DNA from: Marsupella aquatica
Taxonomy: Eukaryota > Plantae > Marchantiophyta
Reading direction: 5' to 3'
Assembly: GCA_973895155.1 (NCBI GenBank)
Contig: OZ316892.1
Coordinates: 758,917 to 822,916, forward strand
Length of the DNA stretch: 64,000 nt
The notes beneath the pieces are model-generated. The model was given only the letters and a program-made list of their open reading frames with translations. It was not told the origin of the DNA and did no database searches. The stretch's first letter is position 1. Every line of letters begins with the position of its first letter. Shown in pieces: positions 5,145 through 56,346 of the stretch. Position numbers and translations under genes: made by a program.

Positions 5145-8100
5145 TGTAGTATCACACTAGGGACATAAATAAACATTTAAGATCCAAAACTCGGTATTCA
5201 TTCCCATGGAAGAACATGTAAGGAATGATTTTATATGATTTAGCACTTATGAAAGACTTAAGTATTTAACAAAACACAAAGTTGAGCCTTTTACTATGAT
5301 TGCTCAACAAGGCATAGTTTTGAATGTTTGCTTAACATTGTAAATAAAATTAACAAATGGAAACAATTAATAAAACACAATAAAAATCTTGAGGTATGGT
5401 GAGGGAGTCTGGAAAATACCAAGGTAACTTCTCAACAACACTTAATTTGAGATGATTTAAGGTGAGGAATCCGCAAGGATATTTCTGGAATGGAATGCTT
5501 TACTAGGATGGTTTATTAAAGTGCCATCAACACATCTCAACCTTTCCTTCCAAGGTACTAAGTTAGGATTAACAACCAATCACTTCAACATCCAATTGGT
5601 ACTTTGTGTCACGAATATCAAGCACCATCATCAACAACTTAAAGTCATAGGTAATTGGGTGATAACATTCTTTGCACCTCGTGCACAAGCAATGTTATGC
5701 CAAAAACATATGCATCAAGAACTCAAGAATGTATAGCCTTCACCAATTAAGGAATCTATCTTCACACATTCAAAAGATTAATCAATCACAAAGTTTTACT
5801 TCTCTGGTCTGAAATCTCAACATTCAAACACAAGGAAGGGGAAGAAATCCTCTGTATTAAGTACTCATATGCAATGGAGTTCTCTTTACAAGGTGGAGGT
5901 AACAAAGTTGCAATCTTGCAACTAAGCGCTCATGAAATTCCTTCCCACAAAAAGTGACATAAAGTCTACTACATATAGGCTAGCAGGAGCTAATTAAAGG
6001 GAAAATAGATAATGAAAGGACATGCCCTTTCCTTGGAATGGATTTTTTATAAATTTTAATACCGTGAAACCCCACGAATAGGGGGGGACAACAAAGGCCA
6101 ATGCAGCCAGAACCTAACAACACAGCAGGGGCAACAGTCCGGGGCCAACACACCCCAGCAGCCCCATACCCCCAACAGGGCCCCTGGGAGCCCAAGAAAA
6201 CTAATGAGCAACTAACAATGACACTACCACGCCAAAAGACATCACTCCACGCCACCACCAAAGCAAAGCCGACCAGCCCGAAACCAATCCTGACGATGAA
6301 AAGCAAGCCATTCGCCGGCCCGGCTCACCCGGGCATGACGCTTGCCAAGCGGAAAATGGCAGTCCACAACAAACAAGTGATCTGCCGTCTCAGTGAGCAC
6401 CAAACCAAAATCGAATTTCCTACCAGCACCGGCCCGGAACATATGATCATTACGGGCCCTCCAAATCATCCACAACATTTGGTAAAGCATAAACAACTTC
6501 ACAAAATGAGTAACTTCCCTCCCCAGGGAATCATCCAATAGGGGCAGTAGACCAACACCGAAAGGCACCCGCAGAGTCCCAAGCACATCCCTATACATCT
6601 GCCAGCACCTGATAGCAAACTTGCATTGAACAAACAGATGTGGCATCGACTCCAGCAGCCCACTGCAATACTTGCATTCGCCGTTACTAGCTTTAATTCT
6701 AAGAGCCCTCTCACCCGTGAACAGACCCCCAACAATCACCCTCCATATGAAGGTCTTGGCCCTGCAAGAGAGATCGGACCTCCACAGCTGACTCCATCTC
6801 TTATTCCACTCCATCTCAGTCCCATTCGATGACCAGATACAGTTCAGACGCTCATAGAATGACACAAATGGTCTAAGAAACTCATACACCCTGCAATTTG
6901 CAATATCAAAGTTCTTCAGGGGCCCAACCTTATCAGCCCATCTCCACCTCCGAGCCCCAGGGTCCAGGTTCAGGGTACAGGAGCCAGACGCCCAGATCTT
7001 CGCCAAAAATGCCTTAGTCAAACCGCGTTGCTCCTCAGAGAACCCCCTCATTTGATGCCACCACAGGGGCATCTCCTTCCAACCAGCACTCTCCGTACAC
7101 CATCCATCCCTAATACTTCTCAAGCCCAGCCTGCCACAAATGGCAGTGATCCCTAATATATCCTCGTTTGGCAGCGAGTTAAACTCTGTAATGCATCTCA
7201 GGGTATCCTGAATGCTCCAGTGCCCTGGAATACCCCACATCCCAGGTTCGAACGAGAGATGTGCTCTCACCTGCTCCCAGGCCTTCCACAGACCAGCGGT
7301 ATATGAAAGACCACCTCCGGTGCGGGGAGAACACAGCAAAAGCTTATCCTTGAGCGAATACTGATTCCTGCGTATGACTTTGTAATTCAACCAGCCCATT
7401 AAGGAGAGGTTTGCAGCAAGCATTCTAGCTTTTGCATAAGGATCATAAACTAAAGTATGAAAGTATGAAAATATGTTATAAGAGTACTCAAGGTTCACTA
7501 GAATGCTCCTGGAATGAAAACTAATCAAAAGTGATCCTTAGTGTAAACTGGAATGAAAGTGTTTTTGCACTTTTGTTGTAAAACTAACAAATAACAACGT
7601 TGTCTGAATTTTAATTTCTAACATAAAGGTCAGAATGAGATGAAACTTTTCTAGGTGGAAGATTTACATACATGCTGGAAAAATTTTAGACTTTTCTGAG
7701 GTGTCTAAGTGCCTTAATAAAATCGGTGAAAAGTGCTGTTGGATATAAAATACATTTTTCCGGAAAATTTTGTAAGTGTCGGAAGCGCCGTTGCGCCGTT
7801 GCGCTTTGGAATAGTAGCGCTGTTGTGCCTTTGCGCACTCATGCCACTGCAAAACTAAAAATTCTATAACTTCTAAACTAAATGTTGGTTTAAGTTGATA
7901 CTTTCAAGGTATGGTCTGCTACATAAGGGCTATCTCCTGAAAAAGTATGAGACTTTTCTAACTACTTCAACTATTTAACTGAAAGTGCGGAGATCGGCTG
8001 GTCTTTACTATTGTCGTAGGAGAACTAATCTTGTTGGAGTAGTGATGTCTGATCTGGTTGCTGAACTCTTGTGTAGGTATTCTCTTGTATAGCTTCTTGA

Positions 8101-8429: not shown

Positions 8430-11400
8430 ATGTCTCAGTCTAGCCTATCATTGTCGGGTAAGGGCAAAGGTAATACTGATGATCTGTCGTTGTTGTGTTG
8501 GGATTAATTATGGCAAACTCAGTGGATATATGATAACCAATCCAGGCCTGTCAAGGATATCCTTAAATACCAACTTAAAGAAAAAAAATTGTGGTATCCA
8601 GAGCCTTTGGCAAAGGCTAAAGTGTGGTGTGAAGAGATTGATACAATTTGTGTCATTGAAGGTTTGTTCACACATAAATTGTGTACTAGGATATCAAGAC
8701 TTGGTGGTGGATTCATAGAGTTGACGTGTTCAGACCATTGTTTCACCATACCTAGTCTAACAGACTTTAGATTACGGGCGTTCAGAGAGGTCATTGCAAT
8801 GGAAAAAGAGGTCAAAGCTCAAGGACAGGTCAAGGTAGGCGGATAGACTACCTCACAACTGAGGAAGTTCGAGAGCAAGCAAAGAAATACCGTAGAACTA
8901 TCAAGAAGGAGAGGAAACTAGCAAGGAGGTTTCAGCATTGTTTGCCGATGCTCACAGCTAAAGAACCATCTCTGGAAGAGATGTGCAAGGAGGCCATAAA
9001 TAGGAAGGACATAATGAACTTTTGTAATTATGTTGCACTAGCACACAAGAAAGGGGCCTTTGGTGGCAGACAAGCATTATGGGATATGCTTCAAGATGTA
9101 GCTTCCAACTTAACCCGAAGCAAGGAGGGTCATCGATGGAGGAAAGGAACAAAGCTCCTTTGTCCGACACTGTTTCTACATGGTGGTAAGCGGGTAGTAG
9201 ATTGTCTCCAAACAAATGGTTTGGGTCCAAGTTTGAATACTCTACGGAGAGGTAAGCGTAGCATGTTTGTGTTTCATGCTGGTCTGCATGCTTCACAATT
9301 CAAGTTAATTGCTCAGGTTTACTCAAATTGAAGAGTCGACTTGGAATATTTAGACCTATTCCTTGCTATTTGGCAGAGGGTGAAACCTATGTGAAGAGGA
9401 CAGTTAGGTGGCAGCCTAAGGATGATACACTTATTGGATTTTGTGGAAAAAAGGACAATCATACCTTGTGGTGTTGGTCTAGCAATAAAAGTGGGAGAGG
9501 GTAAAACTGACCTCAATAACATTGTAGAGGCCTTTGACACTAATGTTATAGGGCACCAAGCCAGGTGCATTATGGTAAATCCCCTTTTTGAGAAGTTTCC
9601 TCGCCTCTGTGCCATGGGCATTGGTATTGGTACATGTGGTCAATTTGGTGCTGATTATATTAGGGAGCAATGGACTGAATTACAATCAATGTGGGCTACT
9701 TATTGCTTGGAGGCTGTTGGACCTTTGAACATTGGGCCATGCTAGTGATGGGGACTCAAGAAGAAGGATGTTAATGATAGAAGATTACACTAGAAGAGGA
9801 ATTTCAGGCTCGGGGGGGGGGTCACTTCCACGGAAGTGGCACATCACGTGCAACAAAGTATAGGCCCATTTAAATGGGTGTGGCGAAATACTTCCAAAGT
9901 TTGGTGGAAGAACACATAGGGCGTGTTTTATTGACTGGTTGACTTTAAAGAACACATAGGCCTATTTAATTGCAAAAATACTTTCTTTAAAGTTTTTAGG
10001 GGTTTTTAATAAAAATGACAAAATTTAAAGAAAGAATGAGCTTTGCAAAAAAATATTTTTCACTTATAAGTTAGGGGGCTCAAACCCTAAAACATTGCAC
10101 ACAATGTATGGCCCTCCATATAATGACCCCCCCAAGATTCCAGGCCCTAGACAAAATCTCAAGTGGGAAGGATGGTTACTAACCCACTCTATGATCACTG
10201 TTGGAATAGTCTCTCATACTTATGGACTTCATGATCAAGATTTTATCCACAATGGAAAGAAACTTGTGAATCCATTGGATTCAATCAAGAGAGTGATGAA
10301 ATTAGGGGTAGAAGTAGTTGCTTTCAGTCACATAAACCATGTGTATGAACTATAGGATGTTAAAGATCATGCAATGAATCATGAAGATGTTCTACAATCA
10401 GACAGGCATAACTGGACTAGTGCCCAACGACTTTGCAGTCAAAAATTGATTAACACACTCCAGATGTTATGAAATCAACCAGATGCCAGACAAGAGATGA
10501 CTCTTGGCTTAGAAGTTTATTTAGGAATATGTGCCGATTATGTGGATATATTCTTGAATACAAGCTTGAGCTTGAGGCAGAGGATTGTTCTTTGTGGCAA
10601 ATTAAGTGAGGCTCTTTTTCAGACTTTGGCGAATGTGGTGTTTTCCTGGGAATCACCCTGTACGTGTTAATACACAGCCAATAAGTTTTAAGCAAAACTA
10701 CATCTCTATGCAAACATTTCTTGACATTCAAATGTGTGTGCATTTTGTGTCATTGTTGATTATCCAATTCAGAGATCACTTCCTGAGTTGCCTATGACTC
10801 TACATCTGACTGGATCAAATAGTTGCAAACAATGTTGTTCAAAAGTTGGAGGCATGCATGAATGGTCATGAACAAAGTTATGGTCTGGCTGAGCTGGTTG
10901 ATTGTGCAACCTCTTTGAACCGGTTGGCAACAATGGACTTGAGTGAAGGAATAGTGGAAGCTGGTCACAGTCACAAAAAGCACAGAAATATTTGGATGAA
11001 ACTTCACCCTGTATCACATGGGTCTCCTAGAAAAGCGAGTCAAACAAACTACACAAGAATTGAAATTGATGTAGATGTTGTGAGGGCTTTACATGAAGGC
11101 TTTTTGCTAGCCAAAGATGTTGCTCCACTTCAGCCATAAATACCACCATGTGGTGGAATTTTCCATGGAAAATAGAGTCAAAAGGTACACACCATGAGGA
11201 TGGTGTGATATTAATGTGGAATCCTTAGAGGTTGATGAAGATGCAACATTGGTAGATAGACCTAACTTACCCTAGACAAATAACAAATACACTACCTATT
11301 CTAGAAGGTCCATTTACAGTAGCTGGATCCTCCACTATAGCAACTGAGGAGGCAAATTCAGCTTCCATGATGGGATACTTGAGGATGGGGTGCCTGATGT

Positions 11401-11668
11401 ACACATAGCTCAAGATAATTGCTATGCTCTAATGTTTGATATACACACAGACTTGGTGTATGGTGAGTTTGCTATCACAATTGTTCCCACTATGAGTTTT
11501 GAGAGTCGGATTATGTACAAGAGTACTTTAGTTAGTCAAATGGTAGGGAACCCCTACCTTAGCAAGGACCGTCTGACACGGGTGAAGCAAAGTCTTTATT
11601 TCAACAATTTGGTGGATAAACTAAAAATGCGGGTTGGTGCTCCAACTATGATGATGAGTGTTGGTAGT
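8430..11668 (+). pseudogene. P-element-like DDE transposase, 5' part (many stops and frameshifts)
   Basis: Motifs in order: HASDGDSRRR (~9740-9770), DQDFIHNGKKLVNPL (DxxH), DRHNW..AQRL, FFRLWRMW, TGSNSCKQC.SK, YKSTLVSQ.VGNP.LSKDRLTRV; continues in frame at 32321. Confidence 0.65.
9809..10136. mobile_element. MITE-like insertion (328 bp) with poly-G/poly-C termini
   Basis: Ends CTCGGGGGGGGGGTCAC and TGACCCCCCCAAG are inverted; flanks ATTTCAGG (9801-9808) and ATTCCAGG (10137-10144); removal restores the frame DYTRRG-IPGPRQNLKWEGW of the host transposase. Confidence 0.8.
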
Positions 11669-12056
11669 AACCCCAATTTAGACAAAACCAGAATTTATTA
11701 AGTCCGGAATTCATAGTGTATATTATTTAATATTATATTTAATTATGATTGTATTATACATGTATTTTTTTGGTATATGATTCTCTTTAAACCATACACA
11801 AGGATAATACTTTCACAATCCATGGAGCGTAGCAATAAAAAATATCCTGTTTGTGAACATATAGTGTACATAGTACATGGAGGTTTACTCGGAATGAAAA
11901 ATTTAACATAAACATCAAATTCATTTGCAATAGAGAGTAATTCAAGATAGAGCTTTAAGATAATGTAACTTGGACACTTTTTATTATAGTGAATGTAGTA
12001 TCACAGACAATATGAAACATAGTCTTTAATCTAAAACCAAATTTAAATAACTCTAT

Positions 12057-12680
12057 TTAATCTTTGTAAATAGACACCTTAATGTCTCTACTTTTTTGGA
12101 ATTCTTCTCTAGGCCTCATTGACCACAATGGATAGTTGGATTTAATAAATCTATGTGCACTAACCTTTGAGTGAGCAAGTCTTAGAAGATAGGGCATGAG
12201 AGTGTTTTCTAAAAACTGGTCACCTAGATCACCGTAAAAGGGTTTTGGATGAAGTGCAGCATAATATGGAGAATCAAAACTTATAGATGCTGCCTCTCCT
12301 AAGAGTACTACATTTTCATATAAATACCCAGGGGCTTCTTTCATAACAATCTTGATATTCATTCCACACTGATTTGACTTAAGGTCGTCTTGTCGGCACC
12401 ATAGTATCTTAAAACTTTCAAGAGCCTTCTCAGTGAGAAGTGGATCAACATGATCGGCCACTTCATACCAATCAGTATGATTCCGGGACCAAAATCCAAT
12501 GTCAAAGTTTTCAGAGCAAAATTTTAAAAACTCTTGAACAAATGGTCTAGGAAAGATCATTTTCTTCTTAACGCAGAAGGCAGTCGAATTTCTTAAATGC
12601 CTTGAGAACCCAGCGGAGAAGACGAGAATGCTTTCAACATGGAAAAGAAGTAATTTTCGGGTAGAAACAAATTTTATAAT
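12057..12680 (-). CDS. FCP1/NIF-like HAD phosphatase-fold domain, copy 2 (catalytic Asp lost); probable terminal exon of the cargo gene
   Basis: RKLLLFHVESIL...IFPRPFVQEFLKFCSENFDIGFWS...ENVVLL...HPKPFYGDLGD; acceptor tgtgcag immediately upstream. Confidence 0.75.
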   Translation of the reverse strand: MIKFVSTRKLLLFHVESILVFSAGFSRHLRNSTAFCVKKKMIFPRPFVQEFLKFCSENFDIGFWSRNHTDWYEVADHVDPLLTEKALESFKILWCRQDDLKSNQCGMNIKIVMKEAPGYLYENVVLLGEAASISFDSPYYAALHPKPFYGDLGDQFLENTLMPYLLRLAHSKVSAHRFIKSNYPLWSMRPREEFQKSRDIKVSIYKD

Positions 12681-12796: not shown

Positions 12797-13489
12797 TTAT
12801 TGAAAAACAACGTCAGCGTACTCATTAAATCGTTTGAGGTGATGTGGGTCACTCTCTAACCTCACAGTGTCATTAGTTGACCAGATCATTCTATTTTCTT
12901 CCCAATCTTCAACTAGTGCAGACAATGACCAAGTAGGATATTTGTTTTGTATGGTTTTGTGCATTGTTTCGGAAGAGTTCAGGAGTGTTTTGAGGTATGG
13001 AATAAGAGTGTTGGGGAAAAAATTGTCCGCTATCTGTCCAGAATACGGTTCAGGGTAGAGAGAAGAGTAAAATGGATTTAGGCACGTTTTGTAAGGAGAG
13101 TCATCAATGAGTATAATGTTTTCACTATAATAGTCATTTTCTAGTTTCGAACGCAGATTTTTCAACTCTTTCAAGAAAATTGGTTTTTGGGTTTTGAAAT
13201 GGTTGCCAACTCGAACTGTGTCCTGTTGAGTAGCAATAAATTTTAACTGTTTTCTGTCATCACTAGTCAATACAGTTTGAAGGATAGGCTTAAGATTGTG
13301 CCATTGCATGCAGGACCAAATTGCAACGTCGAAGTTTGCTTTGCAAAAATCTAGAAACTCGCGCAAATACGGCCTCTTGTAGATGAACTTAGACCCGACC
13401 CGAACTCCGGCACTTTGGTCAAGTAGTTTGGTAGAATACACACTTAACAAAATAACTTTGTTTACATCAAGAATAATGAGTTTTTTCAC
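12797..13489 (-). CDS. FCP1/NIF-like HAD phosphatase-fold domain, copy 1; probable internal exon of the cargo gene
   Basis: KKLIILDVNKVIL, YKRPYLREFLDFC..NFDVAIWS, KPIFLKEL, ENIILIDDSPYK..LNP; acceptor gtacag precedes the ORF start and donor gtaagg follows the end. Confidence 0.85.
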   Translation of the reverse strand: MKKLIILDVNKVILLSVYSTKLLDQSAGVRVGSKFIYKRPYLREFLDFCKANFDVAIWSCMQWHNLKPILQTVLTSDDRKQLKFIATQQDTVRVGNHFKTQKPIFLKELKNLRSKLENDYYSENIILIDDSPYKTCLNPFYSSLYPEPYSGQIADNFFPNTLIPYLKTLLNSSETMHKTIQNKYPTWSLSALVEDWEENRMIWSTNDTVRLESDPHHLKRFNEYADVVFQ

Positions 13490-14349
13490 CTGTACATCAA
13501 GAAAAAAAATAATGAGAGAATTACAGTTTTATAAAATCTATGCAAACAAAACTAAATTTTTGCAAGACCCCATTTCTACTCTTTGAAGTAGCTGCTTTTT
13601 TAGTTGATATATCTCATCACAAAGTTATGATGTGTATCCCATTTCTGTCCGATGCAGAAATTCTCTTTCTGAAAGTGGGAACATCCTTTACCTGGTTGCA
13701 TGATGAGGTGATTTGATATTAGAATAAGCTCAAAAATATAAACCAGAGGCGATGAAATAAAACTAGACAGTACATTAAGGCTACTTAGGATAATAGAAAG
13801 TTTACCTTATGCCCTTGGAAAGGTAGTGGCATATTGAGCAAAACATCGGCGTATGCTTCATCTGTTTCATTTTCCTGTTCTTCATTGAGAGAATTTGGTT
13901 CCATCTGATCACCTTCGTTGCCATCTGACCTCGCATCTGACGGCCCATGGGTTGTAGCTAAAGAAGTATCTTCATTCAACTTTGCCCAAGCATGATCGCA
14001 TCGGGTCATGTCAATTAAAGCATTCTCCTCGGCCATCAAGCTAATGGAGGGCTCTCCAATCCGACCGCAAGCTTCTTCCATAAATATTTTATTCTCTCGA
14101 ACTCTTTTCTCTCTGAAGGTGTTATTAGAGTTGAGATATCATTCAAAACAGTAGTCCAAAATTGTCTCCCATTCCAAGCATGAAGTTTCAATTCATCGGG
14201 GAAGTATACTTCCCAGTCTGCAACCGAAATGTTATCTGGCCGAGTTGTGTCTTCAAGACTTACTACTGATCGAAAATAATTCCGGATATTTAGTTTCACA
14301 ATATCATTATCACCGGCTTTGTTCCAGTAGTTTTCTTCTCTTTCTCCAT

Positions 14350-14900
14350 CTTCTGTTACATTTTTCCCCTTGTATCCATCGCTCTGTTTGTTGCTCTCCT
14401 CCTTGTCATCACTACCTCGGTCTCCTTCCTTGTCATCACCACCTCCATCTCCTTGCTTCTCATCACCATCTTCATCTCCTTCACCATCCAGCTTCGTTTT
14501 TCCCTGCTCCTCATCACCACCTCCATCTCCTGCACCACCTCCATCTCCTTCCTTCTCATCATCACCTCCATGTCCTTCCTTCTCATCACCACCTCCATCT
14601 CCTTCCTTCCCATCATCACCTCCATGTCCTTCATTCTCATCTCCTGCACCACCTCCATGTCCTTCCTTCTCATCATCACCTCCATGTCCTTCTTTCTCAT
14701 CATCACCTCCATGTCCTTCCTTCTCATCACCACCTCCATCTCCTTCATTCTCATCTCCTGCACCACCTCCATATCCTTCATTCTCATCACGATCACCATC
14801 TTCATCTCCTTCACCATCCAGGTTAGTTTTTCCCTGCTCCTCATCCGCCCCTCCTCCTTCTTCAGTGTATGTAAATTGCCTTTGCTCTTTCTCATCTGCT
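14350..14900 (-). repeat. Coding minisatellite (GGDDEKEGH / GGGAGDENEG units) in the acidic region of the cargo gene
   Basis: 27-36 bp units of catcacctccat(g/c)tccttccttct; stop-poor, which explains the stacked ORFs. Confidence 0.9.
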
Positions 14901-17900
14901 TGCTGTTTTTGATCTTGTTTTTCTTTCATCCGCCGCTCCCTCCAATTGTCATCAAACTCCTGTTCGGAGTCATCGGTACCGCTGGTTGGTTTCTGCTTCC
15001 TTTTTGTATACTTTTGACAAGTATCAACTCGTCTCCTGTTTTGACTTTTCTTATGCTGTAAAGTCTCCATGTCACTTTCGTCACCCATATTCTTCCGCTT
15101 CTTTGAATGATTGTCTGCACTCATGGACTCATTTGAGCTCTCGTCTTGGTTTCCAGATTCTGACCCTGGTTCTTCATCATCGTCTTGGTTTTCAGATTCT
15201 GACCCTGGTTCTTCTACATCGTTTGGCTCCTCCTCACTTGATTCATACTCTCCAGTGTTGATTTCATCTTCAAAGATAGTAGACTTCTCATCTGAAACAG
15301 AGGAACAACAATCAGATTTCAAAATTTCATTTGTGCAATCAAGTTAGTGAATGTATTAAAATTAATCAAGTATATGGTTTCGGCTGACTAACCTTTAAGT
15401 GGTCCAACTGGCATCTTTGATGGGAAATAGTATATCCAATTCTGGCTGAGGAGGTTACTCAATTCATACTCTTTTAAAACTCTCTCAACGTTTTCATCAC
15501 TATATGTGAGCATGCTTTTACAATGATCAATTACATCTTCTTTGACTTCTCTGAAGGTTTTTCCTCGAGATATCTTCGCATTCATCATTGCCTCAAGCCT
15601 TTTTCTGTCGAGACATGGTGCTTTACTGGGATACAAGACACCAAAATACCCACTCATTTCTGTGTGAAATGATCGTTTACAATAAGATCTAACCTTAACT
15701 CCTTCTTCCTGGAATAAACAAGCAAGATGTTAGAGGAACTTAAGATAAGGTTAAAGCTATTCAAAAATAGAATTGTAATAATACTTGAAAGCTTACCAGG
15801 AGGCATTTGACCAAGTTTAGCCCTTCTCCAAAACAGACAGCACGCTTTCCGTTGTCGAGAAACAGTCGAGTCAAGTATTGGAAAAAGAGAATACTTTTCT
15901 CACCAGGGAAAGACCTAGCAGCCTGATCCTCTTTAGACTCCTGAAAGTTAAGGAGAGTTCCCCGAGTTTGTAGACTGGACTTAATTGCTTCCCCTATCTT
16001 TGTCATGTCGGTAGATTTTGATAAGAGAGGTTGACAAAATGCATATGTCACAGTATATGTAACATCCCGCTCTGTGTTAAAGAGGGAAATATGAGACTTT
16101 TCGGTGCCTCTTCTCTGGACGTAAGTTGTTTGGAATGGGAAATATCCTGGAGTTGACACTAACTCTCTCATCATGAAAATAGACTCAATAGGATCTGAGA
16201 CATGGACAAGGACATGATTTACCGTCCCCATCTGTTTAATTGCTCTGATGAACATAGAGTAAAAACTGGATATGAATGGACCGTCATCAGATAGAATAGT
16301 GGAGTCAAAATAGAAAAAGTCTACCCGTTGTCTCAGGGACTCAGAGATTTCGTCAAGAAATTTCTTTGTTTTCAGACCTTTCCGCGAGTGTAACTGAAGG
16401 ATATCCTTGATTTGGGGAGGCTTCAGGTTTCCAAACTCGTCAATGCAGTTCTTTGTTGCGGCAATTAAGCTCTTAAAAGCCTCTGGGAGAAGACTCTTCA
16501 TTGTTCCAACACTGGTTGTTTTCTGCGACGCCTTGTTGAGATACTCCTCTCCTAGTGAATCCCTGATCCTGCTCAGCTTTTCTTTATTAAGATGATACCT
16601 CTTGCACAAGATATCAACCTCAACTTTCCTCTCAATCTTTTTCAGGCTATTCAATTCAATACGTTTCATGCCACCGTCACCCAAGTTCTCCAACAGATCT
16701 ATCTCAAACATTCGCTTATGCTTCTTGTTGACACAAAATTCTTCCATGGAAATAAACTTTTCGGCTTCTTCAGCATCATAATCTTTTGAATGGGGTCGGT
16801 CCTTCAAAAGAGATATCTTTGAATTCTCCAACAAGTAGGCGGCAACCTTGTCTATGTCAGCTTCCTCCATCCCTTGTAGATCTCGGAAGCATCGCCTATT
16901 CAGTTGCCAAGTCTTCCGGTTACTGTAAGTTATTGCCTGAGCTTGCGTTTTACCATTGAACGCTATAAGGGATCCTGTACGAGACTTCTCATATACCCGC
17001 ATCCATTTGTTGAATGTTGCATCGCTCATATGAAAGATAAACGGATTGAGCTCGGTAAATGAAAACATTTTCATCTGCCGTGCCCATGGAACAATAATCT
17101 TGGCAGCTTCAAGGAACACCTGAATATAAAACATTACAAAATATAATATTAGAACCCTACAGAAAATACAGATTCAAGTCATTATGTTCAATGTTACCAC
17201 ACAAACCACGGGTTGTAGGGCTCATGCTATCTAGAAGTGTCTGATAATTTACCTTCCATTTTGACCCCTTTGCCTGAGCATTCTCTTTTCTTGGACTTCC
17301 AAACTCTTTCCATACTGCACGTGCTTGGGACGCTATCAACGGAAAGTTAGTCTCGTCAAGTTGAGTTCTCTGGATATTGTTCAAGGCTCGAGAGAGTCCC
17401 ATCATCGTGAGGTTTTCTTTCAAACTGTATGGGGACCAGAACATAATTGCCTGAACCTTGCGAAGATCCTCCCGAAATGTGCATCGCTTATCATCTTCCT
17501 TGAGGATCGCCTTGTATGCCATTATTGTGTGCTGCCCACCAAGAATCCAGAAGTGACAAGTGTTGGTAATATCATCACTCTGCGGTGCCTCTTTTAGAGG
17601 AGTTCCATAGTAACCTTTTGATTTGTTCTTTGAGTCCCATGTTATTGGGACAAGAAAGCAGAGAGTTTTTTGAAAGGTTATCGAGGAGTAGCCAAAGAAA
17701 GCAGCCTTCAGTTCGGTGGCATAATCTTCATCAAAGTCATGACATTTTATGTGATTTGGTGCCAGGTGACATCTCTCAATAGGCACCTCAAAAGTCTTGC
17801 TCTGAAAGATGTTCAGATGAGAGTATGATTCTAGAAAGCTGCAAAATAATTCATCCACGTTCTCCGTCGTGATATCCTTTGGAGGATTTGATGCCAAAAT

Positions 17901-18564
17901 CCCCCCTTTCCCGGTGACAGAAAATATTTTGGTGAATGGTTGTTTTGAGAACTCCAAAATGGCATTGATGTATCTGGAGATACTTTCTGGATCTGGAACC
18001 AATGGTGCAATGGGAAAGCCCTCCCAACAATTCGAACCAAGCAATTCTGAACTTGAGGTGAGATATTCTGTGACTTTCCGCTGGGAGAAAGTTCCATAAT
18101 CCATTCGATCAAAGCAAACCCCAATTGTTTCTCCAGTTTCTCTTTCGTCAAAGAGAAGTACCAATGCTTCTTGTAGGTCATCAAGCCCCATATTTCGCTT
18201 GAAGATGCATCCCACAATTTCTGCATCCATGACAATATGTAACGTCTCCTTGTGCGTGAAACATATTCGCAATTCCTTATTCTGGAGTACTAATCCCCAA
18301 TCAAAGACGTTGCTTGACTTCACTCTATAAATTGAGCTGGCTTCCGGTGAGGTAAGGTCCCGTATCTTTTTCCCTCGATATGTTTTGATCATTTTCATCT
18401 TATCAAGCTGGTCAACAATTGAGCTTTCGGTCTTGCTCTTTGTTTGGGAGCTGCCATTTCTAGGAGCCATATCTGGAGTCACACAAAAAACAAGGAATTT
18501 TGTTTAATTAAAAAGGAAGGTCTCTCTATAGTTAGTTTGTTTGAATGGATGACAAACACAGCCA

Positions 18565-19133
18565 ACAGCCCGCGGGTGGTGAGGTATGCTAAACAGTTGA
18601 TCCAAGTGAGCCTCAGGGCCCGTGGGTGGTGGGGTGTTCTACACAGTCGGTCCAAGTGATCCTCACGACCCGCGGGTGGCGAGGTATGCTAGACATCCGG
18701 TCTTAGTGAGCCGCACTGCCCGCGGGTTGCAAGGTATGCTAGATAGTAGGTTTGAGTGAGCCTCACGGCCCGTGGGTGGTGAGGTATGCTATATAGTCGG
18801 TCTGAGTGAGCCTCACGGCCCGCGGGTGGCAAGGTATGCTAGAGTGTAGGTCTGAGTGGCCTCACGGCCCGTGGGTGGTGAGGTATCCTATACAGTCAGT
18901 CTGAGTGAGCCTCACGGCCCACGGGTGGCAAGGTATGCTAGACTATAGGTTTGAGTGAGCCTCACGGCCCGTGGGTGGTGAGGTATACTATACTGTCGGT
19001 CTGAGTGAGCCTCACGGCTCGCGGGTGGTGAGATATGTTGAGCTTTTAGTGAGTTGCACGTACAACCCGCGGGTGGTGAGGTATGCTAGACAGTCAATCC
19101 AAGTGAGCCTCACGGCCCGCGGGTGGTGAGGTC
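18565..19133. repeat. 50-bp tandem array (~12 copies), each with a 24-bp imperfect palindrome CCTCACGG-CCCGCGGG-TGGTGAGG
   Basis: CGCGGG/CGTGGG/CACGGG cores at ~18571, 18621, 18671, 18721, 18771, 18821, 18870, 18920, 18970, 19020, 19068, 19118; lies ~100 bp upstream of the cargo ATG. Confidence 0.95.
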
Positions 19134-22329: not shown

Positions 22330-25300
22330 CTTGATTGAGTACGTTGATTCCCTGGATGGAAGTATACTTAAATGCCAGGGGTTTATCAGGTAGCCCTATG
22401 CTCCATGTTTGGGTAAATAATGGACAGAAGTCTAATTTAATGGAAGGGTTTAGCAGGTATTGCTATTCTCCATGTTCATTGTGCAGCCCTCGATGGAAGT
22501 ATAATTTAATTGAATTAGGGGAGTTTAGAAGGTATCCCTAATATCCATGTTAGCTAGTCAAACCCTAGCTAGAAGTATAGTTTAATTGATTGAAGTGGGA
22601 TTTATAAAGTATCCATAAGTATACATGCTCCATGTTAGTGCAACCCTACTGGAAGTACAATTTAATTCAAGGGGTTTATCACGTATCCCTAGCCTAGGTT
22701 CCATGTGTGTGCAACATGGAAGGAACCTGGGCAATTTAATTCGAGGGATTTCATAAGGTAGATCCCTATTTCCCATGGTGGTGCAACCCTGGATGGAGGT
22801 GCAATTCAATCCAAGGGGTTTTATATGGTGTTGCTCTGCTCCATGCATGTTACTTGAAGGCGTGGGGTTTGATAAGGTATCTCTACGCTCCATGTTAGTT
22901 GAAGGGGGTTTATAAAAATACCTATGCCCCATGTTTGGGCAACCCTATAAGGAAGTAGAACTTAGTGCAAGCAAGGTTTAATAATGTATATAGTTTAATG
23001 GAACTAATTAAGGGGGTTTTATAAAGTATACCTATGCTCCATGTTAGTGCAACCCTGGATGCCTGGAAGTATAATTTAATGCAACTGAGGGGTTTTAAAA
23101 CGTATATATATCCCTAAGTCTGCTCCATGTATGTTAGTTCAACCCTACCTGGAAGTAGAATTACGTTGGAGGGGTACCCTAGTAGAAGGAAGTAGAACTT
23201 AGTGCAAGCAGGGTTTTATAAGGTACACCTAGCTACTAATTATGCTTCATGTTTGGGAAACCCTGGATGGAAGTATATCATTGGTTTAATGGAACTCGGG
23301 GTTTAGAAAATATACCTAGTATGCTCCATGTTAGTGCAACCCTGGATGCCTGGAAGCATAGTTTAACGCCGGAGTGGGTTTACAACGTATCCCTAGTATG
23401 TTCCATGTTAATTAGCGCAACCCTAGCTGCATATCTAGTTTAATAAAGGGGGTTTATAACGTATACCCATGCTCCATGTTAGTGCAACCCTGGATGCCTG
23501 AAAGTATAATATAATGCAAGGGGTTTTAAAACGTACGTATATATATATCCCTAAGTCTGCTCAATTTTATGTTAGTTCAACCCTACCTGGTCCAGGAAGT
23601 AGAATTACGTTGGAGGGGTACCCTAGTAGAAGGAAGTAGAACTTAGTGCAAGCAGGGTTTTATAAGGTACACCTAGCTACTAATGCTTCATGTTTGGGAA
23701 ACCCTGGATGGAAGTATATCATTGGTTTAATGGAACTCGGGGTTTAGAAAATATACCTAGTATGCTCCATGTTAGTGCAACCCTGGATGCCTGGAAGCAT
23801 AGTTTAATGGAGGGGGTTTACAACGTATCCCTAGTATGTTCCATGTTAATTAGCGCAACCCTAGCTGCATATCTAGTTTAATAAAGGGGGTTTTAACGTA
23901 TACCCATGCTCCATGTTAGTGCAACCCTGGATGCCTGAAAGTATAATATAATGCAAGGGGTTTTAAAACGTACGTATATATATATATCCCTAAGTCTGCT
24001 CAATTTTATGTTAGTTCAACCCTACCTGGTCCAGGAAGTAGAATTACGTTGGAGGGGTACCCTAGTAGAAGGAAGTAGAACTTAGTGCAAGCAGGGTTTT
24101 ATAAGGTACACCTAGCTACTAATGCTTCATGTTTGGGAAACCCTGGATGGAAGTATATCATTGGTTTAATGGAACTCGGGGTTTAGAAAATATACCTAGT
24201 ATGCTCCATGTTAGTGCAACCCTGGATGCCTGGAAGCATAGTTTAATGGAGGGGGTTTACAACGTATCCCTAGTATGTTCCATGTTAATTAGCGCAACCC
24301 TAGCTGCATATCTAGTTTAATAAAGGGGGTTTTAACGTATACCCATGCTCCATGTTAGTGCAACCCTGGATGCCTGAAAGTATAATATAATGCAAGGGGT
24401 TTTAAAACGTACGTATATATATATATCCCTAAGTCTGCTCAATTTTATGTTAGTTCAACCCTACCTGGTCCAGGAAGTAGAATTACGTTGGAGGGGTACC
24501 CTAGTAGAAGGAAGTAGAACTTAGTGCAAGCAGGGTTTTATAAGGTACACCTAGCTACTAATGCTTCATGTTTGGGAAACCCTGGATGGAAGTATATCAT
24601 TGGTTTAATGGAACTCGGGGTTTAGAAAATATACCTAGTATGTTCCATGTTAGTGCAACCCTGGATGCCTGGAAGCATAGTTTAATGGAGGGGGTTTACA
24701 ACGTATCCCTAGTATGTTCCATGTTAATTAGCGCAACCCTAGCTGCATATCTAGTTTAATTGAAGGGGGTTATAACGTATACCCATGCTCCATGTTAGTG
24801 CAACCCTGGATGCCTGGAAGTATAATTTAATGCAAGGGGTTTTTAAATGTACATATATATATATCCCTAAGTCTGCTCCATGTATTTAGTTCAACCCTAC
24901 CTGGAAGTACAATTAGGTTGGAAGGGGTACCCTAGTAGAAGGAAGTAGAACTTAGTGCAAGCAGGGTTTTATAATTAAGGTACACCTTAGAGCTACTAAT
25001 GCTTAGTTCATGTTTGGGAAACCCTGGATGGAAGTATATAGTTTCATGGAACTAACGGGGTTTTAGAAAATATACCTGTACAGTAGTACATGCACCATGT
25101 TCGTGCAACCCTGGATGCCTGGAAGTATAGTTTAATGGAGGATGGTTTACAATTTATCCCTAGTATGTTCCATGTTAATTAGGGCAACCCAAGCTAGAAA
25201 TCTAGTTTAATTTAAGGGGTTGGGTTTATAACATGTCGCTATGCTCCATCTTAGTCCAACCCTTGTCGCTATGCTCCATCTTACTCCAACCCTAGCTAGA

Positions 25301-26085
25301 TATATCTAGTTTAATTGAAGGGGCTGGTATTAATTTATAACGTATCCCTATGCTCCATGTTAGTTGAAGGGGGTTTATAAAGTATTAAGGGGGACAGTTA
25401 CCCGGACAGTTAGCGCAACCCTACTAACTGGAAGTACAATTTAATTATAACATGTCGCTATGCTCCATCTTAGTCCAACCCTTGTCGCTATGCTCCATCT
25501 TACTCCAACCCTAGCTAGATATATCTAGTTTAATTTAAGGGGCCGGTATTAATTTATAACGTATCCCTATGCTCCATGTTAGTTGAAGGGGGTTTATAAA
25601 GTATTAAGGGGGACAGTTACCCGGACAGTTAGCGCAACCCTACTAACTGGAAGTACAATTTAATTCGAAGGGTTTATGAGGTAACTATCCTGAGTGATGC
25701 TCCAATGCTTCATGTATGTGCAACATGGAAGGAAGTGCAATTTAATTGGAGGGATATTATAATAAGGTATCCCTATGCTCCACTTTGAAGGGGGTTTATA
25801 AAGTATTAGTACCTATGCACCATGTTTGTGCAACCCTAGAAGGAAGTAGAACTTAATGCAAGCTAGAGGGATTTTATAAGGTACACATGGGCTTCATGTT
25901 TGGGAAACCTTGGATGGAAATATAGTTTAATAAATGCTGGATATATATATATATATAGTTGAAGGGGGTTTGATAAATTATCTCCATGCTCCATGTTAGC
26001 GCAACTCTAGCTGGTCCGGATATATAGTGTAATTGAACTAATTAAGGAGGTTGTCTTAAGGTATCCCTATGCTCCATGTTTACAA
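22330..26085. repeat. Satellite: ~55-70 bp monomers organised into ~440-bp higher-order repeats with diverged monomeric flanks
   Basis: Monomer core ctatgctccatgttagtgcaaccctggatg...ggaagta...gggtttata; near-identical short ORFs start at 23249, 23690, 24129, 24568 (period 439-441). Confidence 0.95.
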
Positions 26086-27693
26086 TAATATATACCATAG
26101 TAATATTACAGTACATTTAATATCCCAATCATATATTTAACGTAACTGAAATAATATTTAGTTTGTATGTTGGAAGGTAACGTATTGTCAGATTGAAAAA
26201 GCAATGTTGAAAGTATTGACGTAATTGCAAACATAGTAGATCCAACATCGTATTTTTATAACGTCTACAGTATAAGCAAAACGTGGATCCGGCCGTCAAA
26301 TTGCATCCAAGTTTTCCCTCCAAGAGAATTGTATTTGAAATTTGAATTTGAATGATGCTCAGAGTGAGCGTGAATCATCATGCAGACTCTTGCACCGGCC
26401 TCAATCTTCAGTTCTCGCCGAGGTTTCTTTTGTAAGGCCTTGCACCAGCCTCAGTCGACTTCAGTCCTCATGTTTCTTGTGTACCCGCTTGTGTAAGGTC
26501 GCGTTAGTCTCGCTTGTCTTGCAATCTCTTTGTTGTGGTCACGATACTGGCTTATTTCACATTGCGCATTCATCTTCAATCAATCCTCGTCTGAGTTTCA
26601 AGTTTGAGGTATAGCAATTGTTTTAGTGATACTTCTTGGTCGAGAGCTTGATCGGTTAAGGCTCTCTCCCATAATAGCTTAAAACTTGCGGGAGAGAGCT
26701 CAACCGGCTGAGCTTGATTAGAGGAGAGGAGTCATTCAAGAGGAGAGCACTACCGGCTGAGCTCATTTAGATCGAGGAAAGTCACCCACGTCGAGACAAT
26801 TCGATCAGAGGACCGAGAGTAATCTAGGGAGAGCTCGATTACCTGAGGAGATCGATAAGGAGCTAGCTTCTCTGGAGTGATCGGGAACAACATTCAAGCT
26901 ACAAGAGAGTGTCGTCACTCAGCATAAGGTATGCAGTCTACTTTCAAATCCCTAATTTATTGTTTGGTTCATTGTGTATAATTTGTAACCTGTTTATATC
27001 TCTTCTGGTTGAGTCTGTGTGTTAAATTTCTTCGATCCCGTGACTGATCAAAGCAATTTTGTTTCTAATGTGATGAACGTAAACTCTATTCATGTACTCA
27101 GATTCAATTCATGTATTCAGATTCAATTCATGTACTCACATTCAATTCATGTTCTTTGTGAAAGTTCGAATCGGATACAATATTGTATATGCTCTAGAAA
27201 TGGATTTTGTTGTACGCAAATCTAAAATTTTGGAGTAACTACTAAACCCTAAAATTCTTTAAAACACAAAATCTAAGATCACAATTTCACCTGAAGACTT
27301 GACCAGTTGCTGGAAATAATTAAGTTTGCTGCTCACTTGAGGTGAAGTGTTTCTCATTTTATGAACAAACAACATCAATCATCTGTTCAGATAGTAAACC
27401 AATTTTAAATAGCCCTTCATAATTTTGAATAGCCCTTATTAATTTTCATAATATTCAGTCAGGGAGTGAGATCTCAACCCTAAAATTGAACTCCTGACCA
27501 CATCCGAACATCATGTAACAAATTAAACAATTTAATCAGGAAATCAAATCTAAACCGTTTGATAAGCCGAATAAACTCAAATCTAGTCTGAACCCTTGAT
27601 AACTACTATCATGTGTCAAAAGGGGACAATATTCATTATTAATATCATAATTTCTTGTGACCCTAATTTGGAACCCGTGAGGAAATAGGGATA

Positions 27694-27717
27694 TTTAGGG
27701 TTTAGGGTTTAGGGTTT
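27694..27717 (+). repeat. Short plant telomeric-type (TTTAGGG)3 tract / telo-box
   Basis: tttagggtttagggtttagggttta. Confidence 0.7.
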
Positions 27718-28405
27718 ATATATCCACACCCGGGGTCCTAAAATTTGTACACTGCACAACCCACAGGCTGTAGGGTCCTCCATCTCTGATTGATAGAATT
27801 CAAGAGAATTTCTTGTAATGTTTTCATAAAAATGTTATTACATTCTAGTTATTGATAAGGTTTATCAGCCGCCAGCCTACTGATGGTCGATGAATTTGTG
27901 TACCCTGCAACCCGTGGGTTGTGGGGTATTGAGTTGATTGTTGGGTACACAATGATACTTGGTGTCAAAACTTACTAGAGCCAGTTAATCCTTAGCTAGA
28001 CACCTTTTGTAGATGTTGCACATATATATATATATAACAAAGAATATTGTTTCTTGGAGGGAGCATCTCTTGAATGAAGCGAAATCAATGTTGTTCACAA
28101 CCCACGGGCGGCAGGGTACTGATACCTCAATAAGTATTGTTCACAACCCGCGGGCGGTAGGGTACTGATACCTTGAGTTAAGTTAATCAACAAAGCCCAG
28201 ATGCAGGGCACCTTAAATTCCAATCTGAGCTACAAAGATGACATAATATCCAAAACATTATTCTCTGATCTTTAGAGAACCTTCTTTTTTTAGAAAGTTT
28301 TGTGATAGAGTGGCATCGTTTTGGGATTCGGATAATTTGAGATAAGGGCAACCGAATAATGTAAAGTGGCTAACAAATATTATATATTGCTATTGCAGAA
28401 CTAAA

Positions 28406-31400
28406 ATGTCTACGACCATCCTGTCTTTTGAAGTGGGTGACATGGTCGGATTGTTTGGCTCAAAGATATTGGTTGGGATGGGAAAGATTTTTAGTAGTGA
28501 TCCCACCAGGATTTGTCACACGGTGGAGTTAGGTCCGGATCATGTAATGGTGGAGGTTATTGAATGTTTGGATGAAAAGTTCATATTTTCTGATGGAGAA
28601 TACTTGAAGCATTTGATTGGATCCTTTCTTGTTTGGGATAAAAATGATCTCAGAGTTCATCCCTTTAGAGAGAAACACCCTGAAGTCCATGTTGATGAAG
28701 TTGACAATATTAACAGTGCCCGTGATAGTGTCCCTGGGGAAGTTGATCCTAGCACTATCCGACGAGTTGTACCACAAGTTGGGATGGTTGTGAAAGTGTT
28801 TGATGAAGCAAATGTTAATTTTGCTGTAGCGCTGATTACTTTTGTGACCCAAGGATCAACATTAGGGGAAATTATCATCGGAGACACACACATTGGGATA
28901 CTCATTACTGATTTTGTTGATGGCGCGACAAATGAGCACCTTAGATACAGGAATTGTCTTGTCCCTTGGCCTCTCAGCTTGTTGCGAGCTAGTGAAGGTC
29001 ATATGTTGAGCTTTCCAAACAAGGGCACTATTCCTATAGAGATTGATGCATCCAGTCGAAAGCGATCTTATGTGAACATTACAAGGAGAAGTAAAGTAGC
29101 CAACATTTCACTGTCAAAGAAAAGCAAGTTTCTAGACCGTGAGGATGCCAAAAACATTAGTAAGGTGGATTGTTGTGAGGAACAATGCTGCCAATTTTTT
29201 AACCGTGACCTTGCACATAATCTCCGAGAGAAACATTGGGCAAAGAGCTATCAGATGCGGAAGGAAGATGAAGTTACTGCTATTGTGAACTCACTCCATG
29301 ATGTTAGCGGTAGAGTGATAGTTGGTATGGAGGGAACCAATGGGAGAGGGGTTTGTCTGGAAGCGTGGAGGGTGATATACGGAAAAGGAAGAAGTCAGTT
29401 TTATGAGGTGAAGAAAATGGTAAGGGCAGGGGCAAGTATGTGTACTCATGGGAATCTTGGAAAACGATGAATGTCTGAAAGAGTTTCCCAAGCGCTTATG
29501 TCAATGAAAGGGATTATAGACGAATGCGCAGATAACCATCCAGCTAAGTTACGAACTATGAATGACAATACCCGCCAAGTACTTAGAGAACTTCCAATAG
29601 GTTTGAATTGGGAGAATTTGAGAAAGAAGGTGAACTCTAGGAACAAAGAGTTTGGTATTGGTCCAGTTTCCCAACCGACTATGAGTGTTCTGCGAAACAA
29701 TCACGTTAAGGAGGTGGGGATAAAGAAGAAAGGGAGTAACTTCTCAAAGTGCACGACTTGTTGTGAGTTAAATGAACGCAAATCCAAAATGACTGGAGGA
29801 AGAGAGGAAAGGGAACTTTTGAAGGTTGATGAGGACAGACATCACAAAGATCATACCGAAGGGAGAATGTTGTATCATGCTTGGAGGTTTGAATCGGTGC
29901 ATAGGCCAAAGGAGGTCTTGTGTATGATTCACGACAAGATGGATCATTGCAAGACTGCACTACCGAGAATGCCATGATGCCCAAAATCGTTGGATGGTGT
30001 GCAGAGGGTCCCGGTTACTCTTACTGGTATCTTGACTCATGGTCATGGTCCAAAAGCAATTGCCCAGTATAATATTGGAGTGTGGCCGGCTGATCCTAAT
30101 GCCTGCATTGGTTCCTTGGATTCAATATTTCGAATGCTAGAAAATCCGGTACCAATGGTGAAATCATTGCTTGAAGGACCAGATTCTACAGAGCTTTTTT
30201 CAAATTTGTTAATTGGAAGAATGCCCGTCTTGGGAGAAATGGTTCAAGATGCATTCAAGGAAGACATAGACTATGCATTCTTCCAATTTGTTAATTGGAA
30301 GAATGCTCTACCATAGGTAAGTACACGCATTGATTAGGTGTAGCAACTAGTCTATCCTTCTAGGAGTGAATCTCATCTTCTAATCGCATTTTTTAAATTA
30401 ATTTCTAGATCCAAAATATTAGCCTCTTAGAAAGGCTACAACCCGTGGGCTGTGGGTAAATCTCAAATATTGTTTTGGTTGAGATTGAGTAATAGTGTGT
30501 TTGAGATTACAATCTAGATGCATGTCATTGTTCTGATTGTTAAAATTTCTTATTTTTCAGGGGCTTTTGAAACATCATCTTTGACACAGCTATATAGACC
30601 ATTGCCAAGGATCTTGAAGTTACAACTTGATAATTGTGCTGGAGATAACAAAAACAGATTCATTTTGGCATATTTGTCACTTTTGACAGCGAGAGAGGTG
30701 TTCGAAGAAGTTCATTTGGGATTTCTGATGGTCAGACATACTCATGAAGATGTTGATGCAATGTTTGGTAATTTTTCGGAAGCTCTAATGAGGCAGCCAT
30801 CGTATACTCTCCCAGATTTAATGTCGCTACTAATGAAATCACGAAAACCAAATCCTGTTCCCCATTTTGTACAAGAAGTGCCTGATTTTAAAAGTTACTT
30901 AGCACCTTATATGTTGAAAGGGGGAGATACATTGGTGGGCCATTTGAAACCTTGAGTGTTTCGACTGTATGTTCGAGAGGATGGCATGCCTTGCATGCAA
31001 TACAAGCTAAAGGCAATGGATCAAGGGTGGCTTCCGAATGGCGGAATTGAAATGTGGTCATGGACAGTCAAGAAACGTCCTAACCTTCCAACCGGAACAC
31101 CAAAGAGGTTACCAATGACAGAGGTTAAAGTGTTGGAGGAGGTTCGAGAAGGTCTACTGAAGCAAGTGCACTTTTTTGAATTGATCATGAGGAGAAGTCA
31201 CATTGTGGAGGAACAAAAAACAAGTTGGGAGTCACTGATTGAATATTGGAACCGTGTGAGAGGCACTTTGGGTATAGAAGTACAATATTTTCCGGAAGAT
31301 GGAAATGAGTTGGTGCACGGATTTTGGCCTGTATCCAAATGGAGGGAGCATGTTCCATTAGCATACCGTAATGTTGCGTGTGAGTTGGATGCACAAATAG

Positions 31401-31874
31401 ACTATGTGGGGCCTCGGAAGGATAAGCCACGTGAGGTTTTTAACCCACGGATTGATGTTACAAAGGGTGTTTATGTCATGGTGAGACCAGACACCCACGA
31501 CTTGGATACTTACCCAATCTATTTGGGAGAAGCGGTGAGTGATGTGGAAGAGGGAAGTCCAAATGATCACAACCAGATAGAACACATGTGTGAGATGGTT
31601 ACGACCTGTCATGCAAAAAAAACGAGGTCAACCAGCATGTGAGCAAGCAAAAGTACGATGGCTCAATTGTTGGAACAAGAAATGGGAATGTGATCCTGAG
31701 TATGAAATAGAGAGAATTAGTGTGAATACTGTGCTATGGTGTTTCAAATCGCGATCTACTGGAAAATCTGGTTTGATTTCAATTCCAAAAAGACATACTG
31801 AGAAAGCACAAAACAATCTTACTAGATGCATTGAGAGTGAGGTACCAGGAAATGGAGAAGAAAATGTTGAATAG
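28406..31874 (+). pseudogene. Sola-like DDD transposase (three in-frame TGA stops, one frameshift, one intron ~30317-30560)
   Basis: FSKCTTC, MIHDKMD..KTALP, LQLDNCAGDNKN, FLMV(R)HTHEDVDAMF motifs; consecutive in-frame ORFs 28406-29470, 29471-29977, 29990-30316, 30561-30955, 30956-31642, 31590-31874; acceptor ttgcag just 5' of the ATG. Confidence 0.85.
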
Positions 31875-32320
31875 ATCTGCTTGGATATACAAAATGATTG
31901 TTATTACAAGATAGTACTTACTTAGTGCAGCTGCAGTATTAAGTATCATTATTATGATACACTGGTAAATTTAGTTTAATATGTACTTGACAAGTATAGC
32001 TTGACGCCAAAGATTTCAGGATTATTGTAGGCAATACAACCAACCATGGATTGTACATGTTTCCTTATTTCTATGTAAATGACCCTTACTATAGCTCAAG
32101 GTCTCGCTCAAAAGTGTGCAATTTGAGATTAAAGATTTGAGTACACATAATTTGTTTAATCAATGACAATGACAACACAAGTGTATGATTGATTTATAGA
32201 ATATCATTATAGGTTTGAATGGGGCTTAATGTATTTAATTGTATTTAATTGTATTTAATTGTATTTAATAAAATCCGGAAATTATCCAGAAGTCCAATTT
32301 TGTCTAAATTGGGGTTTAGT

Positions 32321-55034: not shown

Positions 55035-56346
<1,312 letters not shown>

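Follow-up and report, generated by a model that had tools for sequence, protein, structure and literature searches.

In the segregation systems of bacteria and plasmids, ParB-type proteins are the partner that clamps DNA; to our knowledge they are hardly known in plants apart from sulfiredoxin. A gene on the minus strand of a 64,000-nt stretch of the liverwort Marsupella aquatica genome (contig OZ316892.1, positions 758,917 to 822,916; the whole stretch is referred to as the window, and all positions are based on it) raises the question of what a ParB-like protein would be doing in a land plant, whether an enzyme is joined to it and whether it belongs to a transposon. A preliminary description, drawn from the letters alone, had taken the interval 15393..18470 for transposon cargo in which a prokaryote-like ParB domain is fused to a degenerate DNA methyltransferase. 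At a probability of roughly 0.5, we consider the locus to be a multi-exon plant gene that encodes a PH-like domain, a ParB/sulfiredoxin-fold domain and possibly a degenerate methyltransferase domain, the product likely being a transposon-type accessory protein that would bind twelve adjacent palindromes. The account best supported places it with the algal 'ParB-like accessory proteins', as a variant of this theme in land plants.

Gene structure, ParB/sulfiredoxin-fold domain and family

The gene comprises four exons in the window, which were spliced by script into 1370 codons with one terminal stop. Exon 1 (17253..18470, minus strand, 406 aa) begins with MAPRNG at an ATG (18470-18468) that is common to homologues and ends at a GT donor (17252-17251). 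It is followed by a phase-0 GT..AG intron (17120..17252), by exon 2 (15797..17119, 441 aa), by exon 3 (15393..15708; EEGVKVRSY...VGPLK), which ends in phase 1 with its frame running into the next exon, and by exon 4 (14039..15291; stop at 14038-14036). All exon borders are canonical GT..AG with the frames in phase. Every peptide quoted in the preliminary description was located in exons 1-3, with FEVPIERCHLAP, DFDEDYATELKAAF, HFWILGGQHTIMAYKAI, VQAIMF and LSRALNN in exon 1, and VDFFYFDSTIL and FPGEKSILFFQYLTRLFLDNGKRAVCFGEGLNLVKCLL in exon 2. The junction between exons 1 and 2 is spanned unbroken by the annotated liverwort protein P0038, and in 5 of the 7 rows that reach this junction (alignment A5, 9 rows) a V stands right after 'WK', which fits a conserved GT donor with gene callers reading on into the intron. 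The predicted splice sites and frames thereby support the intron-bearing eukaryotic gene that had been proposed; the proposed interval covers a real gene but only part of it, since the end of the gene lies at 14039 here and at about 12060 in a sister genome.

Exon 4 consists of acidic low-complexity sequence with 27-nt repeats and K/R-rich stretches, followed by a short conserved tail. Four runs, the sister-genome runs X1 and X2 among them, were aligned to the window, all of them genomic contigs colinear with the introns. The 27-nt tandem repeats (14395-14801), where contig depth goes up in two of the runs, translate into copies of an acidic G/D/E/K/H nonapeptide.

An AlphaFold2 model of the exon 1 product built from 53 sequences reached a mean pLDDT of 86.2, and three fold searches converged on residues ~222-370 (ParB/sulfiredoxin-fold domain, 17361..17807, minus strand), with ParB, Noc, KorB, PadC and sulfiredoxin on top. 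In the Foldseek search against PDB, ranks 1-6 are taken by Caulobacter ParB, Noc and Myxococcus ParB (E 3.2e-3 to 2e-2, probability 0.92-1.00), followed by KorB, PadC and sulfiredoxins; against BFVD, 11 of the top 20 hits are named ParB, partition or ParB-like, and rank 2 is a phage 'DNA methylase'. On this model a ParB/sulfiredoxin fold in the exon 1 product is supported, and the ParB/sulfiredoxin pattern that had been read from the letters, for which modelling and Foldseek had been named as the check, is above chance, the model and the searches agreeing. Residues 31-180, which precede it (17931..18380, minus strand), were assigned to a PH-like beta-sandwich domain, and this assignment is weak.

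The nucleotide-binding motif is GERRxRA in ParB and GCHR in sulfiredoxin. Across the present family, the conserved pocket residues are G312 (28 of 28 members), Q313 (26/27), H314 (27/27), S360 (36/39), N364 (36/37) and R384 (30/32), and position 244 is R in 25 of 27 members and H in the window. Judged by this near-invariant G-Q-H / S..N / R pocket, the ParB-like domain does not look dead. The ParBc profile matched none of the 53 family members at E ≤ 5, and DUF6551 was touched by two of the 53 (E 0.05). No helix-turn-helix was discernible after the ParB domain, where the helical region is modelled at low confidence. DUF3723 (PF12520, a fungal Starship accessory gene) was raised by a language-model lead of 0.93 only and was set aside, with no Pfam match in exon 1 at E ≤ 1 or in the 53 members at E ≤ 5.

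The 53 relatives were recovered at E ≤ 1e-3 by an exhaustive HMMER search of 1.84 billion representatives (25 of them at ≤ 1e-10 and 11 at ≤ 1e-30); word-index homologue searches gave 4 close fragments only. An organism name was obtained for 4 of the 20 proteins looked up, namely Ceratodon, Adiantum, Calypogeia and Diphasiastrum (a moss, a fern, a liverwort and a lycophyte), with P0043 coming from Ceratodon purpureus and P0056 from Adiantum nelumboides. As far as these names go, the family is restricted to land plants. One scan of prokaryotic genomes and two of metagenome contigs contained no relatives; the proposed prokaryotic origin is thus backed by no sequence match, the named relatives all being land plants and the prokaryotic genome scan being empty. 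The family is without a Pfam model, so with a profile of its own, proteins otherwise listed as 'hypothetical' in the genomes of mosses, liverworts, lycophytes and ferns could be annotated.

The palindrome array and its neighbourhood

Upstream of the gene, and ending 91 bp before its ATG, lies an array (18561..19131) of 12 units spaced at 50 bp, each of which contains a 24-bp near-palindrome, CCTCACnnCCCGCGGGnnGTGAGG. The near-palindrome has 12 matches in the array at ≤3 mismatches, with 0 expected (100 shuffles), and Tandem Repeats Finder reports a period of 50 with 11.4 copies. By analogy with parS and sopC, the array is proposed as the likely binding site of the ParB-fold protein. The preliminary description mentioned neither this array nor the NIF-like part of the locus nor the algal precedents.

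A related core, ACAACCCRCGGGYGG, occurs in three copies and in both orientations at 27900..28165, which is 180-450 bp upstream of transposase-like open reading frames (ORFs), and within the window it is found only there and at the array. The transposase-like ORF segments (28346..31642, plus strand) match DUF7869 (PF25273, E 5e-36) and lie on the strand opposite to the gene, 9.9 kb from it. The string of ORFs extends over 28346-32779, its contiguous segments being split by single in-frame stops at 29468-29470 and 30953-30955, and the transposase-like gene is either broken or intron-bearing. No mention of DUF7869 was found in the literature within reach; an affiliation with Sola-type transposases is not claimed here.

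Beside the copies of the palindromic motif, three to four units of the plant telomere-type TTTAGGG were found at 27693-27718, internal to the chromosome arm. A satellite array with a 439-bp period (23005-25219, and 22400-26100; 5 copies, 94% matches, 74-bp subrepeats) separates the ParB-like gene from the DUF7869 ORFs. Further off, a Helitron_like_N match (48072-49695, minus strand, E 3.3e-51) with two more contiguous ORF segments marks a Helitron remnant or element, and zf-RVT ORFs at 6242-7537 (minus strand) and 45860-46543 (plus strand; E 2.4e-10 and 2.7e-13, respectively) are remains of non-long-terminal-repeat retroelements. An exon at 55945-56346 (plus strand) with NAC and HYPK-type UBA domains probably belongs to a host gene for the alpha subunit of the nascent-polypeptide-associated complex. 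ORF pieces at 8771-11701 (plus strand), which are convergent with the gene, gave no Pfam or PDB match, and a P-element-like reading of them was dropped.

Points against and alternative explanations

Several results weigh against the reading given at the outset, and they are set out here domain by domain, together with the explanations that they favour. For the ParB-like domain, the Foldseek E-values are modest (the best is 3.2e-3, with none at 1e-3), and exon 1 has no match in Pfam, PHROGs, NCBIfam or PADLOC and none in PDB by sequence or family profile. The position of the ParB arginine motif is occupied by G311-G312-Q313-H314-T315, with no arginine there. Binding of the array by the protein is purely inferred.

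The alpha/beta domain is where the reading is most open to another explanation. The first part of exon 2 (16412..17119, minus strand; exon-2 residues 1-236) is mainly a helical linker, modelled at pLDDT 36-78 and conserved with P0038; the second part (15797..16411, minus strand; exon-2 residues 237-441) holds the alpha/beta domain with VDFFYFDSTIL and FPGEKS...CFGEGLN, which exon 3 would complete. Beta-class amino-methyltransferases run from strand 4 to strand 7 and then to strand 1, with (D/N/S)PP(Y/F/W) after strand 4 (catalytic motif IV) and FxGxG as motif I, which binds S-adenosylmethionine. The predicted secondary structure (strand 268-273, helix, strand 302-307, helix, hairpin 326-362, helices, helix 407-420, strand 428-432, helix) fits this order, and in an unguided MAFFT alignment P0043, P0056 and the window group are matched at their first strand-helix-strand block. 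A language-model search with exon 2 returned N6_N4_Mtase (PF01555) clusters only among the matches listed (ranks 1-9, scores 0.84-0.87); this lead is under the 0.9 line, with 148 shared features against the 170 usual in true members, and one third of shuffled proteins likewise reach ten concordant hits.

Alignment by hhalign of the exon-2/3 family against a methylase reference (36 phage ORFs from IMG/VR loci, found with E. coli YhdJ) gave a sole local match that lies exactly on motif I, placing FPGEKS...CFGEGLN on HPTQKP...DPFxGSGTT (40 columns, P 0.033, probability 1.5%), and its score was equalled in 1 of 120 column shuffles. The moss protein P0043 placed VLDTFC..STGVA on VLDPFxGSGTT at the same template columns (P 0.024). 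In P0056, VVDIFSLGYGT was picked out by eye and not by hhalign, which found no match at motif I in this protein. Global hhalign against the 36 phage methylases failed, a profile enlarged by P0043 and P0056 scored no higher (P 0.095), and single-sequence hhalign between the middle regions of the clades was not significant. A local hidden Markov model of the 36 phage methylases found nothing in the family, PF01555 had no match at E ≤ 10 in exon 2, P0008, P0061, P0038, P0043 or P0056, and no methyltransferase profile of Pfam, NCBIfam, PHROG, PADLOC or PDB was matched. The AlphaFold2 model of exon 2 is poor (pLDDT 51.6, four sequences); Foldseek against PDB with this model gave nothing at E ≤ 0.001, and a wide VIA-align search had alpha/beta folds of STAS and GDSL type in its top 50 and no DNA methylase among them.

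These failures, together with the frequency of concordant hits among shuffled proteins, favour another three-layer fold (STAS-, flavodoxin- or GDSL-like) whose resemblance to the methylase motifs is due to chance. Such a fold is a serious candidate, to which we give somewhat under even odds, because the VIA-align matches carry little weight at the pLDDT of the model, the listed language-model rows are unanimous, the only local hhalign match falls on motif I, and fusions of ParB with an N6_N4 methylase recur in phages (as in BFVD rank 2) and in algal transposons. Derivation of the domain from a beta-class amino-methyltransferase stands, in our judgement, at about one half, and the methyltransferase fold of the preliminary description is not demonstrated. 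What the description had said of lost motifs was borne out: at the position of motif IV stand FYFDSTIL in the window, DFRFLPTY in P0043 and IIDTTHKG in P0056, so that (D/N/S)PP(Y/F/W) is wholly absent in all three clades, and the window has CFGEGLN, which hhalign sets against motif I, and no canonical FxGxG. If the fold is that of a methylase, it would be inactive, given that the catalytic motif is absent in all three clades.

Downstream of exon 4 the question is whether this copy still serves a function. A Pfam scan of 25 hits found a domain in two only, the long proteins P0043 (1419 aa) and P0056 (990 aa), where PF03031 (NIF/FCP-like phosphatase) lies C-terminal to the ParB-like part. Two such HAD domains follow in the window on the minus strand, domain 1 at 12866..13489 (PF03031 E 2.2e-16; colinear with P0056) and the more degenerate domain 2 at 12060..12680 (E 1.9e-9; stop at 12059-12057), with 60.4 and 37.8 bits against a Pfam cut-off of 21.8. 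They share 30% identity and are joined by a phase-0 GT..AG intron, their spliced frame is stop-free over 492 aa, and P0056 matches the ParB region of the window and then its NIF region with the order kept. An open segment in the second frame (13806..14036, minus strand; MAEENALID...GHK) has a GT donor (13805-13804) leading into domain 1, and its ATG (14036-14034) overlaps the exon-4 stop TGA (14038-14036) as TGATG.

In the window the NIF part is severed from the gene by a 1-bp length difference (14087..14093, minus strand). One X1 contig has an extra base at 14091-14093 which, by frame arithmetic, carries the exon-4 frame into the NIF frame (open from 14138), so that in the X1 genome the whole architecture would be a single frame of roughly 1860 codons. 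A separate break was seen in X2, where NIF domain 1 has a nonsense change and a 2-bp insertion (at 13225 and 13112).

The comparison of sister genomes covers 40 of 62 differences, which are those listed, and the figures that follow refer to these 40. Exons 1-4 contain 26 of them, 19 non-synonymous and 7 synonymous, which gives a ratio of non-synonymous to synonymous differences per site (pN/pS) of ~0.70 (3265 and 845 sites). One listed difference restores R244 in both X1 and X2. All 4 coding differences listed for the NIF part alter the protein, one of them being the stop in X2. Present copies look weakly constrained by this comparison, in which the sample is small and the divergence only ~0.5%.

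The window copy is probably decaying, in view of the 1-bp frameshift before the NIF part, the H at the R244 site and the near-neutral differences between sister genomes. A stronger form of this holds that the copy is a relic that no longer functions, irrespective of the role that other members of the family may have. The severed NIF part (unbroken in X1), the H at a site that is R in nearly all relatives, the pN/pS, the X2 breaks and the in-frame stops in the neighbouring transposase-like ORFs speak for it. We regard a functionless relic as rather unlikely, since exons 1-4 retain an intact frame of 1370 codons in the window and no gaps occur over 14743-18776 in the X1 and X2 contigs; at ~0.5% divergence the intact frame is uninformative either way, and the differences on which the case for decay is built are the 40 listed.

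Membership of a transposon is circumstantial. The description of the gene as transposon cargo agrees with a setting rich in transposable elements, the opposite-strand transposase-like gene, the shared repeat motif and the near-neutral polymorphism, but not with the searches for ends, three of which gave no convincing terminal inverted repeats or target-site duplication; in addition, the gene is present in one copy in the window, and X1 and X2 contig depth is flat over gene and flank. The same three points, with relatives that in four plants lie on chromosome-scale scaffolds and are annotated like any ordinary protein, and with pocket residues strongly conserved over the long term, fit a lineage-specific host gene of non-seed land plants, whose product would be a nuclear scaffold joining a ParB-fold nucleotide- or DNA-binding module to NIF pseudophosphatases in chromatin or RNA polymerase II regulation, the repeats being a promoter or an unrelated satellite. 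We find this more doubtful still, as the family is very divergent and mostly fragments (identities 17-74%), pN/pS between sister genomes is ~0.70, the NIF part carries a frameshift, an indel and a stop, the neighbourhood is dense in transposable elements, the palindromic core is shared with the transposase-like gene and the published algal precedents are all transposon-borne.

Proposed mechanism and comparison with known systems

If the gene does encode a transposon-type accessory protein, its ParB-like module would bind nucleotide through the G-Q-H / S..N / R pocket and would clamp or spread on the palindrome array, as ParB does on parS and SopB on sopC. Lacking both (D/N/S)PP(Y/F/W) and a canonical FxGxG, the alpha/beta domain would be unable to methylate DNA and would function in binding; the NIF-like domains, as pseudophosphatases, would retain phosphoproteins. 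A bolder extension, which we offer as speculation, is that the ParB-fold protein and a 'centromere-like' palindrome array form a partition-like pair in a land-plant giant DNA transposon, and that the protein has taken on the shell of a methyltransferase and NIF pseudophosphatases, both dead as enzymes, by which it tethers or marks the element on chromatin or the transcription machinery. The locus offers a directly testable partner in cis, namely the twelve regularly spaced palindromes by the gene. If confirmed, these proposals would bear on the means of self-control or self-protection that large DNA transposons have in haploid-dominant plants and on the reuse of pseudoenzymes as binding modules.

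NIF/FCP1-like phosphatases carry a DxDx(T/V) nucleophile motif. Both downstream domains resemble NIF/FCP1/SCP-type HAD phosphatases in their clear PF03031 matches, and the closest solved structure is UBLCP1 (3shq; domain 1, E 8e-7). They depart from them at the nucleophile: DxDxT is not intact in domain 1, where L-D-I-D-Y-T of UBLCP1 falls on L-S-V-Y-S-T (phmmer), or in the other possible register on L-D-V-N-K-V, so that the second aspartate is missing in either register, and domain 2 has F-H-V-E-S at this motif.

In plasmid F, the sopC layout is one of tandem sites bound by SopB. The ParB-parS and SopB-sopC systems share with the locus an N-terminal ParB/sulfiredoxin-fold domain and a gene-adjacent array of evenly spaced palindromes. 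They differ in that the window protein belongs to no sequence profile and has G-Q-H-T instead of the arginine-rich GERR, that no ParA partner was seen in the window and that the setting is eukaryotic and intron-bearing. Phage fusions of ParB with N6_N4 methylases (such as the 'DNA methylase' of Mycobacterium phage Vincenzo, the BFVD rank 2 hit) likewise have the ParB-like domain first and an alpha/beta domain after it, and exon 2 resembles the PF01555 clusters by language model; the window protein differs in a helical linker of ~270 residues between the domains and in having no DPPY-type motif, no canonical FxGxG and no profile match.

Closer precedents come from eukaryotes. Eukaryotic methylases derived from phage ParB-terminase loci were listed in a 2015 review (PMC4738411). 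For brown, red and green algae, three 2025 reports describe giant transposons with accessory proteins in which a ParB-like part is fused to DNA-modifying domains. No earlier land-plant description was found in the literature within reach, algal cases only (most subscription journals lay outside it). In the red alga Bostrychia moritziana, a preprint describes a Plavaka accessory gene, PAG3, with a ParB-like domain and a 2-oxoglutarate (2OG) oxygenase and with tandem inverted-repeat arrays adjoining it, and a second, PAG2, with an N6A methylase and a SET domain (10.1101/2025.02.11.637652). PAG3 resembles the gene in the window in the fusion of a ParB-like N-terminus to a second enzyme-type domain and in the inverted-repeat arrays beside it, and differs in that the partner is a 2OG-dependent oxygenase there and methylase-like or NIF-like here, and in that the superfamily is defined there (Plavaka/EnSpm).

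The 21.5-kb transposon Sola1-1_Ec32 of Ectocarpus is reported to encode an accessory protein with a ParB-like domain and an N4C/N6A methylase on the strand opposite to the transposase, and such accessory proteins were proposed there to bind and modify their own element (PMC12477816). Compared by description, both are large proteins (1104 aa there, at least 1370 aa here) with the ParB-like domain N-terminal, both are encoded amid abundant transposable elements, on the strand opposite to a transposase or transposase-like gene, and for both a binding of the own element is proposed. The methyltransferase is recognisable in Ectocarpus, whereas the window protein has neither a profile match nor the catalytic motifs; the PH-like domain, the acidic repeats and the NIF-like domains are additional in the land-plant family, the host is a land plant, and the borders of the element are not defined here. 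If the reading is true, a class so far reported from algae only extends to embryophytes, and it does so in a different end state from the algal cases, with attached enzyme domains that, by their motifs, appear inactive.

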